From Patescibacteria group bacterium (GTDB lineage Bacteria; Patescibacteriota; Minisyncoccia; UBA6257; HR35): 33,993 nt of DNA. The notes beneath the pieces are model-generated. The model ran no database searches. It was not told the DNA's origin and saw nothing but the letters and a program-made list of their open reading frames with translations. Numbering within the stretch: the first letter of the stretch is position 1; each line of letters starts with the position of its first letter. Below are positions 4,344 through 33,993 of the stretch, piece after piece. Where the stretch lies: assembly GCA_038065795.1 (NCBI GenBank), contig JBBTQG010000003.1, positions 1-33,993 on the forward strand, in the 5' to 3' direction. The translations under genes and the position numbers were made by a program.

Positions 4344-5675
4344 TTAATTGCTCTTTAAAATTTTAGCGATTAAACGCGCGTCTTCTTCTGTTGTGTTAAT
4401 ATTTGTTGGTAAATTATATGAGCTTAAAGCTAATTTTTCAGCATTAGGGCATTTTCCATAATAATATCCAAATCTATCCAATCTTTTTTGAACTGGCGCT
4501 AAAACAGATTTATACCAATGCCCGATGTAAATGTGTTCTTTTTTAAATTTTTCAATAATTTTTTGCGGTTTTAATGAAAACATTTGGTATCTTAAATAAA
4601 TTGGTTCGCTTTCTGGGGAGACATTTCCAAAATGAAACACTCCTTCTTTTTTATAAATATTAGCAAGGTGTTTTCTGTGCTCATTAAATTTTTCAAGTTT
4701 ATTCAATTGATTTTCTAAAATTTCAAAAAAAACATCAGGCATTTTTGAAATATATTGTTTTGTTATTAGCCCCCTTTTTTCTATTGGTTCAATTTCCAGA
4801 GACGAAAGTTTTAAGTGTTTTAATAAAAACATTAAAGATTTGCCGATGGAGGTGTAATATTTTTTAGCTTGCCATGAAATAATCCCGTGAATTAATTGTT
4901 TTCTTGTCCAAGATTTTGAAGGCTCTGGAAGTGTTTCATAAAATTTTTTAAATTGCTCGGAAAGTCTTTTGTTATTTATTACAAGCGCCCCGCCAATTAA
5001 ACTGCTTATTACTTTATTTCTGCCAAAACTTAATAAAGCAACATCGCCAAAGTTTCCTAAATATTTGCCGTCATATTTTGCTCCAAAAGAATGGGCTAAA
5101 TTTTCAATAACAAAAAGATTATTTTCTTTTGCGGTTTGTAGAATATTTTTATAGTCAGCAGGAAATCCGAAAGTATTTTGAATAATTAAAACGCCTGTGT
5201 CTTTGTCAATATTTTTTTTCAAATCTTCATTTGATATATTCGCGCTGTTTTCTTCAATATCAACAAAAACAGGAATACCTCCCGCGAATTTTATTGAATT
5301 GGCAACAACAAGACAAGAGTACCCTTGCGTTAAAACTTTTTTTCTAAAATTTTGTGCCAGATAAAACTTTAGAAACGCAGATAACGCGCCTCGCGCAGAA
5401 GAGAAAAAATAAAAATCTCCATTTGAAAAATAGCGTTTAAGTATTTTTTCAACATTTTCGCGTGAGCCTGTATTTGATTTATTTGAATTTGAAAATACAA
5501 ATTTTTTAACAATTTGAATATCATCTTTCTCAAAATTCGGCAAAAAATCAATGTGAACCCCGTTAAAAAATTTGGAATTACAGCTTAGTTCTTTCCGAAT
5601 TACTTTGTTCATTTTCTTAAATTTTACACCCTCAGGCGAATAATCTTTTTTAACGGGGTGAATTAAGTTTTTCAT
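4344..5675 (-). CDS. DegT/DnrJ/EryC1/StrS PLP-dependent aminotransferase family protein, with a 35-aa N-terminal insertion
   Basis: FSSARGAL, QNTFG, IENLAHSFGA, SFGRNKVIS (PLP lysine), CPNAE...NLPT. Confidence 0.88.
   Translation of the reverse strand: MKNLIHPVKKDYSPEGVKFKKMNKVIRKELSCNSKFFNGVHIDFLPNFEKDDIQIVKKFVFSNSNKSNTGSRENVEKILKRYFSNGDFYFFSSARGALSAFLKFYLAQNFRKKVLTQGYSCLVVANSIKFAGGIPVFVDIEENSANISNEDLKKNIDKDTGVLIIQNTFGFPADYKNILQTAKENNLFVIENLAHSFGAKYDGKYLGNFGDVALLSFGRNKVISSLIGGALVINNKRLSEQFKKFYETLPEPSKSWTRKQLIHGIISWQAKKYYTSIGKSLMFLLKHLKLSSLEIEPIEKRGLITKQYISKMPDVFFEILENQLNKLEKFNEHRKHLANIYKKEGVFHFGNVSPESEPIYLRYQMFSLKPQKIIEKFKKEHIYIGHWYKSVLAPVQKRLDRFGYYYGKCPNAEKLALSSYNLPTNINTTEEDARLIAKILKSN
5553..5662. 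mobile_element. MITE-like CCCCGTTA-family element, in frame in the aminotransferase gene
   Basis: 14-bp inverted repeat ACCCCGTTAAAAAA (5557-5570) / TTTTTTAACGGGGT (5646-5659). GTGAA direct repeats at 5553-5557 and 5658-5662 are 105 nt apart. Confidence 0.8.
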
Positions 5676-13841: not shown

Positions 13842-13857
13842 GATTATATGAAAATTA

Positions 13858-14338
13858 TAAGGCATAGAATAAGCCGGATTTTGTCTTGCCCCGCTTAGCG
13901 GGGTGAAGTAGTCATCTATCTAGCCATAAACTTGCGTTTATGGTCAAGCGGTACTCCCAGCACCATAAATGATGCTCGATACGACCTTGAACCCAGAACT
14001 CAAAAACCGCTACGGCAAAATTGCTTTTGCCGAGATGACGGTAGCAAAAGAATGAATGATTTCACACCCGTCAACTTTTCACCTTTTTTACTCCGCTAAG
14101 CGGAGTCGTAGTATTGTCTCTGTGATTTTTGTCAGACATTACTGCCTGCCTCCTTTTAGGGGGATTCACTCGCGCACCCTTTATACCATTATTACAAGGA
14201 GATATTACCGATAAAACAATGTGCCTTCATTAGATATAAAGGGTGCGCGATGGGTTTCCGGACTTTCCTCCTATCCGTAGTTTTTGTAAATTAAAAATTT
14301 ACAAAAACTACGGATAGGCGACCACTTTCCATACCTTA
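13858..14338 (-). ncRNA. rnpB: RNase P RNA (expanded, about 480 nt)
   Basis: Minus strand has GAGGAAAGTCCGG (P4 5' side), ACAGAGA and GGTGAAA conserved regions, and 3' GACAAAATCCGGCTTAT. P1 is TAAGGTATGGAA/TTCTATGCCTTA. Confidence 0.92.
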
Positions 14339-20921: not shown

Positions 20922-21036
20922 TTGTCCTGTTAGAAATGCCGTGGTGGTGGAATTGGAAGACACGCACGGTTCAGGGCTGTGTGTCCGCAAGGATGTGTGG
21001 GTTCGACTCCCACCCACGGCATTTCTAACGGGACAA
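20922..21036. mobile_element. CCCGTTAGAAA-family inverted-repeat element carrying tRNA-Leu
   Basis: TTGTCCTGTTAGAAAT (20922-20937) / ATTTCTAACGGGACAA (21021-21036), 15/16 match with one G-U pair. Confidence 0.75.
20938..21021 (+). tRNA. tRNA-Leu(CAG)
   Basis: GCCGTGG/CCACGGC + A; CACGG-TTCAGGG-CTGTG; variable arm; GTGGG-TTCGACT-CCCAC. Confidence 0.95.
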
Positions 21037-21157
21037 GGGAGTTATCGCCGTACCGCCCAATAATATTCCGTATTTTTTGGGATAGTAGATTTAATAAAAT
21101 CTTTAATTTTTCGAAATTTATATCATCTTACACAAGCGAAAATCTGCTTTGTAAGTT

Positions 21158-31239: not shown

Positions 31240-32283
31240 ATGAATAACGATAACCATCTATATTTTAACATTGTCAATCAGGAATATATGCCATATCAAC
31301 CGCAATTATACAAGGATTTGGAAAAATACAAAAGTTTCAAAAAATTGTGGGAAAATCACGGCTTAAAACTATATAAAAAAGACCCTCAGGTTGAATTTGA
31401 AAAACTCAAAAAATTAGGAATAAAAATAATAACTATTTTGGACGCAGAATATCCTGAAAGTTTAAAGAATATTCCAAGCCCTCCGTTGGGGTTTTATTTG
31501 CTTGGCGAGATGCCTTTAAATTTTCCATTAGCAATTGTTGGAACAAGAAAAGCTGGACATTATGGATTATCAATTGCGACAAAATTTGCAAAAGCATTGG
31601 CGGGATTAGGAGTTGTGATTGTAAGCGGGTTAGCATATGGAATTGATTCAGCGGCGCATAAGGGAACAGTTGAAATTGGCGGAAAAACTATCGCGGTTTT
31701 GGGAGAGGGAATTGATTTGGTTTTGGATTCGCCAAAAAGAAATTTGGTTGCTCAAATTTTAGAAACAGGAGGAGGAGTAATAAGCGAGTTTCCATTGGGA
31801 GCTGGAGGGTTAAAAGGAAATTTTCCATTAAGAAACAGAATAGTTTCAGGGTTAAGTTTGGGAACTATTGTAATAGAAGCGCCAATCGATTCAGGAGCGT
31901 TAATTACGGCAAGATTGGCGATGGAGCAGGGGAAGGAAGTTTTTGTCGTCCCGGCTGAAATTGTAAATAAAAATTTTGAAGGAAGCCATAGATTAATTCA
32001 GCAAGGAGCGAAACTAATAACAACAATTGACGACATTCTCACGGAATTTGATTTTCATAATACAAAAGCAGATGCAAAAGCATATAATGAATTGTTTAAA
32101 TTAAAATTATCGCCAGCCGAAGAAGAAATTTTTAACGCCTTAAAAATAGAGAGCTTGGATTTAATGGGGCTTCAGGAGGAGCTGGATATGAGCACGGGCG
32201 AGCTCTTATCTCTTTTGACCCATTTAGAAATCAAGGGTATAATTAAAAATATCGGAGGGAAGTTTATATGTACGGGCTCGTAG
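31240..32283 (+). CDS. dprA: DNA-processing protein DprA
   Basis: YPESLKNIPSPP, AIVGTR, VSGLAYGIDSAAH, FPLRNRIVSGLS, SGALITA, LIQQGA. Confidence 0.96.
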   Translation: MNNDNHLYFNIVNQEYMPYQPQLYKDLEKYKSFKKLWENHGLKLYKKDPQVEFEKLKKLGIKIITILDAEYPESLKNIPSPPLGFYLLGEMPLNFPLAIVGTRKAGHYGLSIATKFAKALAGLGVVIVSGLAYGIDSAAHKGTVEIGGKTIAVLGEGIDLVLDSPKRNLVAQILETGGGVISEFPLGAGGLKGNFPLRNRIVSGLSLGTIVIEAPIDSGALITARLAMEQGKEVFVVPAEIVNKNFEGSHRLIQQGAKLITTIDDILTEFDFHNTKADAKAYNELFKLKLSPAEEEIFNALKIESLDLMGLQEELDMSTGELLSLLTHLEIKGIIKNIGGKFICTGS

Positions 32284-32396: not shown

Positions 32397-32480
32397 GCCG
32401 AAGTAGCTCAGTTGGTCATCCGTCAAAAGCATATGCATTTTGACGGACCCGCCAAAATGCGCAGCTTTTGGCGGGGAGCA
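32397..32480 (+). pseudogene. 5' part of a disrupted tRNA-Thr-like gene, with two hairpins inserted in the D-loop
   Basis: GCCGAAG-TA-GCTC-AGTTGGT [hairpins 32419-32447 and 32448-32475] GAGC-A. Confidence 0.8.
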
Positions 32481-32489
32481 ATTAAAAAA

Positions 32490-32750
32490 ATGCATTATAC
32501 TTATGTATTATTATTAAGTAATAAAAAATTTTACATAGGTTCGACAAGTAATTTGAAATTAAGATTAAAAGATCATAAAAATGGTCGAGTAAAATCAACA
32601 AGACAATTTTTACCGTTAGAATTAGTATATTTTGAGTGTTGTTTTTCTAAAACAGACGCAATAAAACGGGAGTATCAATTAAAGACTGGATTCGGAAGAG
32701 GGTATCTTAGAAGAAGATTGGAAAATTTTTTAAACAATACGCCGACCTAG
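32490..32750 (+). CDS. Small GIY-YIG nuclease (86 aa)
   Basis: YTYVL...FYIGSTSNLKLRLKDHKNG...LVYFE...AIKREYQLK; start re-called at ATG 32490; the stop codon lies inside tRNA-Thr. Confidence 0.92.
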   Translation: MHYTYVLLLSNKKFYIGSTSNLKLRLKDHKNGRVKSTRQFLPLELVYFECCFSKTDAIKREYQLKTGFGRGYLRRRLENFLNNTPT

Positions 32751-32813
32751 CTCAATTGGCAGAGCAACGGTTTTGTAAACCGTAGGTTCGGGGTTCAAGT
32801 CCCCGGGTCGGCT
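32741..32813 (+). tRNA. tRNA-Thr(TGT)
   Basis: GCCGACC/GGTCGGC + T; ACGGT-TTTGTAA-ACCGT; CGGGG-TTCAAGT-CCCCG. Confidence 0.95.
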
Positions 32814-33231: not shown

Positions 33232-33296
33232 GTAAATGGGAAATAATTATTGGCGAGGTGTCGGAGTGTCGGAGTGGGGTACAAAGTGCCATTTTA

Positions 33297-33368: not shown

Positions 33369-33605
33369 ATGTATTATATTTATATAATTTATAGCAAAAA
33401 ATTAAATAAAAAATATGCTGGTATTACAAAAAATTTAAAGAAACGAATTTATGAACATAATCATAGTAAAGTGCCATTTACATCAAAGGCAAAAGATTGG
33501 AAGTTAATTTACTATGAAGCATTTCTAAATAAGCAAGATGCATATGCGGAAGAAAAATTTTTGAAAAGTGGAAAGGGCAGAGTTCGTTTAAAATATTTAT
33601 TATAA
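33369..33605 (+). CDS. Small GIY-YIG nuclease (78 aa)
   Basis: YIYIIYS...KYAGITKNLKKRIYEHN...LIYYEAF...AYAEEKFLKSG; start re-called at ATG 33369. Confidence 0.92.
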   Translation: MYYIYIIYSKKLNKKYAGITKNLKKRIYEHNHSKVPFTSKAKDWKLIYYEAFLNKQDAYAEEKFLKSGKGRVRLKYLL

Positions 33606-33659
33606 AATACCTTAACAGATATTTGGCGAGGTGCCGGAGTGGTTTAACGGAGCGGCTCG

Positions 33660-33768
33660 CCCCGTTAGAAAATGGAGGATTGGCAGAATGGTAATGCACT
33701 GGTTTCGAAAACCAGCGGGAGTAATCCCTTGCAGGTTCGAATCCTGCATCCTCCGTTTTCTAACGGGG
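33660..33768. mobile_element. CCCCGTTAGAAAA inverted-repeat element carrying tRNA-Ser(CGA)
   Basis: Perfect 13-bp IR at 33660-33672 / 33756-33768. Confidence 0.85.
33674..33755 (+). tRNA. tRNA-Ser(CGA), intact, nested
   Basis: GGAGGAT/ATCCTCC + G; CTGGT-TTCGAAA-ACCAG; V-arm GGGA/TCCC; GCAGG-TTCGAAT-CCTGC. Confidence 0.95.
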
Positions 33769-33896
33769 TAAAAAAACCGCGTCTTCAAAAAAGACTCGTG
33801 AGTTCGAATCTCACCCTCGCCGAATAAAAAATTAATTTGCTTAAAGGTTAGTTGGCAGATATAAAATAGGGCTTGCCCTTTCAAATCCTCCTCCCG

Positions 33897-33936
33897 CCAC
33901 ACAAAATTCCCATTTTAAAATGGGAATTTTGTGTGG
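33897..33936. repeat. Perfect 40-bp palindrome
   Basis: CCACACAAAATTCCCATTTT|AAAATGGGAATTTTGTGTGG. Confidence 0.92.
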
Positions 33937-33993
33937 TGCCTTTTGGTTAAAATCCGAACTTTTTTTGACGAAAATCCTGATTGCGAATTTTGA

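Follow-up and report, generated by a model that had tools for sequence, protein, structure and literature searches.

Introduction

Short mobile DNAs with terminal inverted repeats (IRs) include MITEs (miniature inverted-repeat transposable elements) and small insertion sequence (IS) elements, for example Correia, RUP and Nezha; piggyBac and IS1380 have CCC...TAGAAAG ends and TTAA or 4-5-bp duplications. Transfer RNA (tRNA) genes can be interrupted by group I introns in bacterial anticodon loops or by archaeal bulge-helix-bulge (BHB) introns, and split or permuted tRNA genes are known, with examples of such interrupted genes in Nanoarchaeum, Caldivirga and Cyanidioschyzon. When genomic islands and prophages integrate into a tRNA gene, they bring along a copy of the 3' end that they displace, and free-standing GIY-YIG homing endonuclease genes are represented by the T4 seg genes and relatives of I-TevI. 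Here we analyse a stretch of 33,993 nucleotides (nt) from a Patescibacteria group bacterium (contig JBBTQG010000003.1 of assembly GCA_038065795.1; hereafter the window), in which an intact tRNA-Ser(CGA) gene, enclosed by a 13-bp perfect IR, lies in the anticodon loop of a second, outer tRNA-Ser gene (33625-33822). The nest exemplifies an architecture, formed by a family of short IR elements, that is widespread, cognate-specific and in some cases multi-layered.

Like MITEs, this family has short terminal IRs, many copies per genome and mostly duplicated targets (74 of the 120 loci listed). Unlike them, it has termini conserved across phyla, its cargo appears to be a working tRNA gene, and its tRNA-bearing copies lie inside cognate tRNA genes without a duplication; the only open reading frame (ORF) found between its IRs encodes a GIY-YIG protein of about 90 amino acids (aa), not a DDE, HUH, serine or tyrosine transposase. 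As in piggyBac and IS1380, the termini begin with CCC, contain TAGAAA and are accompanied by 4-bp T..A duplications. We take this resemblance to be coincidental and have set aside an IS1380/piggyBac origin, since the IS1380-family transposase profile NF033539 scored above cut-off in 0 of 5 element-rich genomes, and a weak hit (L141) lacks such termini. Group I introns in bacterial tRNA genes share with the nest its loop site, a GIY-YIG gene nearby and a sporadic distribution, but the insert is only 109 bp long, the outer loop is not restorable, and compensation would come from a second gene instead of splicing; no match to the group I core (Rfam RF00028) was found at the nest at gathering score or at E up to 10. 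A group I intron does occur elsewhere in the host genome (contig C40, 130-375 (-), Rfam 56.2 bits). With BHB-interrupted and split tRNA genes the nest has in common that a tRNA gene is interrupted at the loop (in the wider family also at non-canonical positions) and that a helix joins the halves; it differs in its bacterial host, in the lack of a bulge-helix-bulge, in that no EndA or RtcB was found, and in an insert that holds a whole tRNA. Like a tRNA-integrating island, the element would bring sequence that keeps the invaded gene working, but it has no integrase, carries a whole tRNA and not a 3' end, sits in loops and spans about 100 bp. Free-standing GIY-YIG genes have a parallel in a GIY-YIG block in the window that is polymorphic for presence and absence and accompanied by a partly duplicated target gene, although the 109-bp insert itself has no nuclease gene. 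In the Candidate Phyla Radiation (CPR), GIY-YIG proteins occur in non-intron inserts of rRNA genes, mostly at stem-loop tips (PMC11270868); the small GIY-YIG ORFs of the window similarly lie beside or inside conserved RNA genes, and the word tRNA has 0 occurrences in that paper's text. Neither tRNAs nested in tRNA genes nor arm-bounded GIY-YIG elements were described in the literature searched, at the level of search listings.

Results

A tRNA-Ser gene inside the anticodon loop of another

The host genome (G000; 581 kb in 56 contigs, 32% G+C, rated 99.6% complete) carries a bacterial class A RNase P RNA (Rfam), and the window is its contig C3. The nest is composed of the following parts:

33625-33659 (+), 5' half of the outer tRNA-Ser, GGCGAGG TG CCG GAGTGGTTTAA CGG A GCGG CTCG: acceptor GGCGAGG, D arm, 5' strand of the anticodon stem GCGG, and CTCG abutting the insert
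33660-33672 (+), left terminal IR arm, CCCCGTTAGAAAA, matching the family terminus YCCCGTTAGAAA
33673-33756 (+), inner intact tRNA-Ser(CGA), the cargo of the element, as called by aragorn
33756-33768 (+), right terminal IR arm, TTTTCTAACGGGG, complementary to the left arm at 13/13 positions
33769-33822 (+), 3' half of the outer tRNA-Ser: TAAAAAAA (degenerate loop remnant), CCGC, variable arm GTCTT..AAGAC, T arm GTGAG TTCGAAT CTCAC, acceptor CCTCGCC and discriminator G (G73)

The original prediction, made from the sequence alone, had described an outer gene with well-formed arms around a 109-bp insert consisting of a 13-bp perfect IR and a complete tRNA-Ser(CGA), with the IR stacked on the inner acceptor stem, and our analysis bears out each of these points. 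The outer gene has a D arm, an acceptor stem paired at 7/7 positions, a T stem at 5/5 and a variable stem of 5 bp. The inner gene is called Ser(cga) by aragorn, with a last base that doubles as the first T of the right arm, and reaches 62.8 bits with the Rfam tRNA model (33674-33755, E 1.6e-11, gathering score 29). The whole nest of 198 nt folds at a predicted -95.1 kcal/mol, against -58.5 +/- 4.5 in 200 shuffles (z -8.2; 0/200 as good), and in the predicted fold the IR and the inner acceptor stem form one stacked helix. The outer loop reads GCGG CTCG, then the insert, then TAAAAAAA CCGC; the borders of the insert form a 4 x 8-nt internal loop beside the 13-bp helix, and the outer anticodon stem contains a C31-A39 mismatch.

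Only the inner gene is reported by standard scanners, as had been expected: aragorn calls it with or without intron mode, Rfam finds it too, and the outer gene is absent both from the intron-mode calls and from Rfam matches at E up to 10. Since aragorn calls a tRNA across the junction in 96 of 216 in-silico deletion variants around the insert, the outer body is a cloverleaf. Exact excision of 33660-33768 yields 'tRNA-??? (taaa)' with a non-canonical loop, and a Ser(CGA) call is obtained only when 5 or 7 extra bases are deleted (33660-33773 or 33660-33775).

The nest was confirmed to be real by DNA sequencing runs. Contigs from four runs in two studies, one of which may be the source sample of the assembly, bridge both junctions: the left is covered by contigs 33623-33709 (runs X1, X2) and the right by contigs 33680-33931 (X1, X2) and 33696-33931 (X6). 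Each junction was recovered in two studies, which speaks against a chimera of one assembly, although no single contig spans the whole nest and the two bridging pieces share 30 bases within the inner tRNA. No empty allele of the 109-bp insert was seen in the four runs. In run X1, T replaces C at 33660, where the left arm begins (a single contig, at depth 4.8). The base corresponds to the Y position that varies across the IR family as well. A joint from 33755 to 33793 (one X1 contig, one X6 contig; side 24) and many loose contig ends at 33755 and 33935 most likely stem from tRNAs or repeats of other organisms and were left unused. One loose end in X6 runs uninterrupted through ...TTTCGAAAACCGC... 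into the same T arm, which hints at the presence of an intact Ser(CGA) relative in these samples.

A family of inverted-repeat elements with shared termini

We scanned species-representative genomes (one per species) for arm cores 72-100 bp apart and obtained at least 120 loci; this section describes the loci listed. Their 240 ends share the terminus YCCCGTTAGAAA(T), with an invariant core CCGTTAGAAA and a Y at position -2. Flanks read T-K-M-A, and perfect 4-bp direct repeats flank 74 of the 120. Invariant termini, T-K-M-A flanks and direct repeats together make up a transposition signature, and the family is MITE-like; judged by its sequence, the insert is a non-autonomous member of this mobile IR family. 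The sequences inside the copies are unrelated to one another, non-autonomous copies measure about 30-120 bp, and the records that carry family copies are titled Patescibacteria/CPR groups, Saccharibacteria, Omnitrophota, Deltaproteobacteria, Planctomycetia, Nitrospirae and others.

Among the 39 tRNAs of G000, a flank helix of at least 13 bp surrounds only two, the nested tRNA-Ser and a tRNA-Leu(CAG), and the next longest is 6 bp. Both of these IR-flanked tRNAs lie in the window; in each, the IR abuts the tRNA and position -1 pairs with the discriminator. The window also holds a copy without tRNA:

5558-5670 (+), cargo-less 113-bp family copy, CCCCGTTAAAAAA ... TTTTTTAACGGGG, with TGAA on each side

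Further copies of about 110 bp are found at C56:24615-24726 (TTGA on both sides) and C32:15968, and 29-bp solo hairpins at C32:5640 and C50:23817. The right ends of several copies (C32:5640-5668, C56:24615-24726, C32:15968-16058) abut boxes of the form TTGAC(A/T), 17 nt, TATAAT-like, so that these copies lie immediately upstream of promoter-like sites or contribute part of them.

Other repeat types were compared and dropped on the basis of the sequence: integron attC sites, for which core and inverse core stand in the wrong order, as well as REP/RAYT repeats, Tn3-like GGGG ends and Xer/dif sites. A BLAST search of 60 relatives with the 198-nt nest returned no second nest, only inner-like tRNAs and tRNA-Ser halves.

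Nesting in cognate tRNA genes recurs and is sometimes layered

Copies that bear a tRNA are, as a rule, nested in a cognate tRNA gene. When metagenomes were scanned for arms around a T-loop motif, at least 119 loci were obtained, and the counts that follow are among the matches listed. A tRNA lies between the IRs in 111 of the 119, with the anticodons Ala-cgc (36), Pro-tgg (21), Leu-cag (12), Pro-cgg (9), Thr-cgt (6), Val-tac (5), Gly-ccc (4), Thr-tgt (4), Val-cac (3), Ser-cga (3) and others (8). Cargo anticodons with C at position 34 (C34) number 73 of the 111; such anticodons read one codon and are often dispensable. When the element was removed in silico, with 81 boundary variants per locus, an outer tRNA was called across the junction at 58 of the 119 loci; a further 11 keep a downstream T-loop motif, and 6 have too little flank. 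The outer tRNA's best-matching isotype equals that of the inner in 55 of 59 nests, in a comparison that left out the anticodon loop and each nest's own inner gene and drew on a library rich in Ala, Ser and Pro, with Val making up three of the four misses.

The junction mostly falls at outer positions 33-40 and is largely identical within an isoacceptor group. Exceptions lie in the D loop (L249, L245), at position 28 (L255) and in the T loop (L264); the outer anticodon is readable in these four nests and agrees with the inner one in three. Spacers between IR and tRNA range from 0 to about 10 nt in nests elsewhere, and the module CYYG-element-TRAA occurs in both orientations relative to tRNAs. 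In some nests (Thr-tgt L195; Leu-cag L209 and L330), the exact native 7-nt loop would return if 4 nt were removed together with the element. Cargo-less copies are situated within a tRNA in only 2 of 127 cases, namely at L110 5088-5190 in a tRNA-Pro(TGG) and L032 1914-2020 in a tRNA-Leu(AAG), both at about acceptor position 4; there the element's terminal GGGG regenerates the first 5' acceptor nucleotides, and a short relic of the old 5' end remains upstream.

Nests can also be layered. Of 59 nests, 3 have an outer tRNA with IRs of its own on both sides, and another 3 have one with an IR on one side only. Three-layer nests, in which a tRNA lies within an IR-flanked tRNA within a further tRNA remnant, were found at L217, L255 and L281/L184; L217 comprises a tRNA-Pro in a tRNA-Pro in a tRNA-Pro remnant, and L255 has the arm variant CCCCGTTACAAA. 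Within the order to which the host belongs, IR-flanked tRNAs are sporadic (4 of 121 genomes), and the three genomes besides G000 are also nested, two with a callable outer tRNA and one whose 5' half is truncated.

The outer gene as a probable relic

Related Ser nests have A-rich degenerate loops like that of the window (L266 TAAAAAAA, L288 TCAAGAAAAA, L239 TCTTGAGAAAAA), and many outer shells elsewhere are truncated (L221, L246, L266, L333). Outer genes also resemble one another less than inner genes do, with identities of 0.59 against 0.79 for Pro-tgg, 0.68 against 0.73 for Ala-cgc and 0.60 against 0.70 for Leu-cag. An origin of the inner gene as an in-situ duplicate of the resident gene is not supported on average, since the mean identity of outer genes is 0.685 to their own inner and 0.671 to inners from other nests that share the anticodon; an outer gene matches its own inner best in 11 of 41 cases. 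The inner tRNA of the window is 84-85% identical to its best matches, which are tRNAs of other families, and at most 77% to those of its own, in favour of a foreign origin of the inner gene.

The outer acceptor is identical to that of a tRNA-Ser(TGA) in a genome of the same family (L176), and intact Ser(CGA) genes with the identical acceptor and T arm occur in a different family of the order (L173-L175). Based on these identities, we regard the outer gene as having once been a UCN-type tRNA-Ser. It was most likely Ser(CGA), in line with the original prediction and with the agreement of outer and inner anticodon in three of the four nests where the outer one is readable. Its 25-nt T arm plus acceptor has a match without mismatch in three genomes of one genus of the order; the intact counterparts sit at non-orthologous places.

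In G000, rated 99.6% complete, neither EndA (PF01974, 0/1) nor RtcB (PF01139, 0/1) was found by profiles that, used as controls, matched in 4 and 10 of 14 genomes, respectively. Because excision cannot restore the loop and neither enzyme was found, we interpret the outer gene as a relic that the inner gene has replaced. We place the probability of this reading, with a non-decoding outer gene whose role a mobile cognate tRNA has taken over, at roughly 0.7. This is in keeping with the isoacceptor replacement by a miniature element that had been proposed, now supported by the membership of the insert in a mobile IR family, and with the lower likelihood that had been given to intron-like processing.

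No tRNA-Ser(UGA), tRNA-Asn or tRNA-Gly(UCC) is present among the 38-39 tRNAs called in the 56-contig assembly of G000 (aragorn, Rfam); either these loci are unassembled or further genes are hidden by inserts.

Small GIY-YIG genes near and between the inverted repeats

Two GIY-YIG ORFs lie upstream of the nest:

33369-33605 (+), GIY-YIG ORF, 78 aa from this ATG, Pfam PF01541, E 1.8e-15, ending 19 nt before the outer tRNA
32496-32750 (+), GIY-YIG ORF, E 5.9e-15

The insert carries no nuclease gene, the ORF ending 19 nt upstream being the nearest, and paralogs occur in G000 on C3, C40, C43 and C56. The C43 copy (L319) is bounded by arms of the same family, TCCCGTTAGAGAT / ATCTCTAACGGGA, with TGAA on each side, and GIY-YIG ORFs at L308, L304, L050 and L084 are bounded in the same way. 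These IR-bounded ORFs are 87-94 aa long and run into the right arm, with the stop codon within the flanking TGAA. At L319 (C43, 1465-1749) and L308 (1465-1728), the insertion point of the element coincides exactly with the ATGAA at which a host gene starts; the left copy of the duplicated ATGAA provides the start of the element's ORF, and in the right copy the element's TGA stop overlaps the host ATG. In another genome of the order, GIY-YIG ORFs at L301 and L320 go with a co-varying arm variant CGTACGAAAT (arm pair TCCCGTACGAAAT / ATTTCGTACGGGA), so arms and nuclease seem to co-vary between subfamilies. These arrangements are consistent with a GIY-YIG protein that would mobilise the elements or act on their arms.

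Among relatives, 15 of 37 GIY-YIG regions lie within 200 nt of a tRNA. Searches with the protein gave only a weak match in the Protein Data Bank (PDB), the UPF0213 protein 1zg2 (E 0.26), and only sub-threshold matches to group I intron endonucleases in NCBIfam. Six GIY-YIG ORFs without recognisable arms (L311, L312, L324, L315, L327, L328) have a complete tRNA (Asn-gtt or Gln) directly after them and, ahead of them, a partial copy of the 5' part of that tRNA, which in the Gln cases is followed by CTTGCCCCG.

Neighbourhood of the nest

The nest lies at the end of a tRNA cluster with a parallel layer upstream and a second IR-flanked tRNA elsewhere in the window:

32397-32813 (+), parallel layer: relic 5' piece of tRNA-Thr (32397-32416), the GIY-YIG ORF 32496-32750 and a complete tRNA-Thr(TGT) (32741-32813)
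33252-33276 (+), relic that repeats the initial ~17-25 nt of the same tRNA-Ser, GGCGAGGTGTCGGAGTG..., located upstream of the second GIY-YIG ORF
33895-33938 (+), terminator-like 20-bp hairpin downstream of the nest
20926-21042 (+), second IR-flanked tRNA: IR CCTGTTAGAAA (20926-20936), tRNA-Leu(CAG) (20937-21022), IR TTTCTAACGGG (21023-21033), then CAAGGGAG
13854-14338 (-), RNase P RNA, class A, 132 bits, 485 nt against a model of 367 positions, implying sizeable insertions
31240-32283, DprA/Smf-like ORF, a short way upstream of the tRNA cluster that was invaded

A strong promoter-like site precedes a tRNA-Val at 32274, and from promoter to terminator the order is tRNA-Val, Thr relic, GIY-YIG ORF, tRNA-Thr(TGT), Ser relic (33252-), second GIY-YIG ORF and nest. 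One X1 contig joins 33220-33249 straight to 33623 onward, from which it follows that an allele without the ~373-bp block of relic and GIY-YIG ORF exists; this allele already has the left junction of the nest. A 576-nt X2 contig ends at the same place and continues unlike the window. Downstream of the tRNA-Leu(CAG), CAAGGGAG is the same outer tRNA-Leu loop remnant as in Leu nests elsewhere (L209, L211, L330), and the upstream GGTGAAATTG resembles a tRNA-Leu D loop; aragorn called no outer tRNA here after removal of the element. By resemblance, this would be a second, more decayed nest. The DprA/Smf-like ORF, judged from its translation only, may be relevant to routes of uptake and recombination.

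Discussion

The anatomy of the nest, its family membership, the recurrence of nesting, the cognate rule, the layering, and the faster divergence and truncation of outer shells are the observations on which we base a model. We propose that a small non-autonomous IR element, with termini YCCCGTTAGAAA, 4-bp T-K-M-A duplications and tRNA-Ser(CGA) as cargo, broke a resident tRNA-Ser gene, most likely Ser(CGA), by entering its anticodon loop. The inner gene would be transcribed from the signals of the resident gene, and RNase P and 3' processing would release the inner tRNA from the long helix of IR and outer anticodon stem, so that the inner gene supplies the tRNA. New copies would invade the currently active tRNA copy and thereby produce layered nests. 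Two routes to cognate targeting are conceivable: (i) insert-free genes may be cleaved, followed by homing through recombination between conserved tRNA halves, or (ii) insertion may be directed to the loop, followed by selection for copies that replace what they broke. More broadly, the family may represent a targeted, GIY-YIG-linked and self-compensating selfish element that carries a spare tRNA gene and homes into the resident cognate gene, a proposal that we hold tentatively, at somewhat less than even odds. If so, insertion would be harmless because the cargo replaces the broken gene; the cargo would inherit the promoter and processing of the resident gene, and successive invasions would leave shells like those of a Russian doll. 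A piggyBac-like 'carried overhang' model would account for one native-looking and one foreign-looking flank; it fits the Thr and Leu nests but not the Pro-tgg or Ala-cgc (type i) nests, and we regard it as no more than an idea.

Four other explanations have to be weighed against replacement by a targeted element. The same mobile element could nest in cognate genes through chance insertion and survival, without targeting or homing. Cargo-less copies are almost never inside tRNAs (2/127), as purifying selection predicts, and the prevalence of often dispensable C34 anticodons among cargo tRNAs (73/111) would fit as well; yet at least 58 of the 119 tRNA-bearing copies listed are nested, repeated layers exist, hits on a target of ~75 bp in genomes of 0.5-1 Mb would be rare, and junctions are largely identical within an isoacceptor group, all of which makes chance unlikely. 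Intron-like processing, whereby one transcript gives two working tRNAs once the insert is cut out and the outer halves are ligated or held together by pairing, could account for outer arms that are intact except for the loop, for an insert whose single long helix is a plausible nuclease substrate, for the loops of L195, L209 and L330 that removal of the element and 4 nt would restore, and for Ala-cgc outer anticodon stems that keep pairing via compensatory changes. We consider it distinctly unlikely, given that excision in the window is non-canonical and a Ser anticodon requires 5 or 7 extra bases to be dropped, that the outer anticodon stem has the C31-A39 mismatch, that many shells are truncated and outers diverge faster than inners, and that neither EndA or RtcB in G000 nor a group I core at the nest was found; moreover, CYYG-element-TRAA in both orientations implies that a DNA duplex is conserved, not an RNA motif.

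The IRs might instead be processing or termination hairpins of the host, with the nest arising from local duplication of a resident tRNA into a hairpin. The pairing of position -1 with the discriminator at the IR-tRNA border of both window tRNAs, the solo hairpins just upstream of promoter-like TTGACA boxes in G000, and a few nests whose inner and outer genes hardly differ across the D arm and anticodon stem (L185, L239) point in this direction. Host hairpins are nonetheless very unlikely to explain 4-bp direct repeats at 74 of the 120 copies listed, unrelated inner sequences with a nuclease gene in some of them, outer genes that are on average no closer to their own inner than to foreign ones, a sporadic distribution in the order, and IR-tRNA spacers that vary from 0 to about 10 nt elsewhere. 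As for an assembly artefact, two strains or two tRNA-Ser genes might have been joined via the conserved inner tRNA sequence, where the bridging pieces overlap by only 30 bases, no contig crosses the whole nest, and depth from other organisms is very high. Each junction alone, however, shows outer half, IR arm and inner tRNA sequence and was seen in two studies, the outer halves form a perfect 7-bp acceptor stem, and the same architecture recurs in 58 independent metagenome loci among the matches listed and in three other genomes of the order, so that an artefact can be given almost no credence.

Several observations count against replacement by a mobile, targeted element. The outer gene of the window is intact save for its loop (acceptor 7/7, T stem 5/5, variable stem 5 bp), which means that it is young or that some constraint still acts on it. 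Among the Ala-cgc nests, outer anticodon stems are perfectly paired through at least 8 compensatory variants, a pattern that fits constraint on the outer helix as well as independent invasions. The nest lacks a target-site duplication, with CTCG on the left and TAAA on the right; nested copies in general have no 4-bp repeat and carry CYYG at one end and T(G/A)AA at the opposite one, in either orientation, a rule that is not derivable from a simple cut-and-paste event. Neither an outer call nor a T-loop motif was obtained at 44 of the 119 metagenome loci listed, which could be relics beyond recognition or plain intergenic insertions. With regard to the nuclease, an IR-bounded ORF is present in only 5 of 37 GIY-YIG regions of relatives (3 distinct loci, some listed twice), and we know of no transposase activity for GIY-YIG proteins so small. 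Finally, the scans demanded exact IR cores, and all frequencies are those of biased samples of the matches listed.

Replacement of resident genes by mobile cognate tRNAs would have several implications. A mobile element would enter an essential, conserved gene at no cost by bringing a working copy, and this would explain horizontal exchange and replacement of tRNA genes in genomes of ~0.6 Mb. Because standard scanners miss the outer shells, counts of tRNAs and pseudogenes, as well as element boundaries, will be off in metagenome-assembled genomes. The tiny GIY-YIG proteins that are abundant and unexplained in these bacteria are linked here to a defined DNA end sequence, and if the proposed link holds, this would be the first mobile element bounded by terminal inverted repeats with a minimal GIY-YIG nuclease as its own enzyme. 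The insert would also be a natural cassette of ~100 bp for which a host tRNA locus provides expression. The cognate rule raises the question of how an element recognises its own kind of tRNA gene, and if the element is indeed self-compensating, it would drive a turnover of tRNA genes, akin to gene drive, in ultra-small groundwater bacteria and in other uncultivated phyla.

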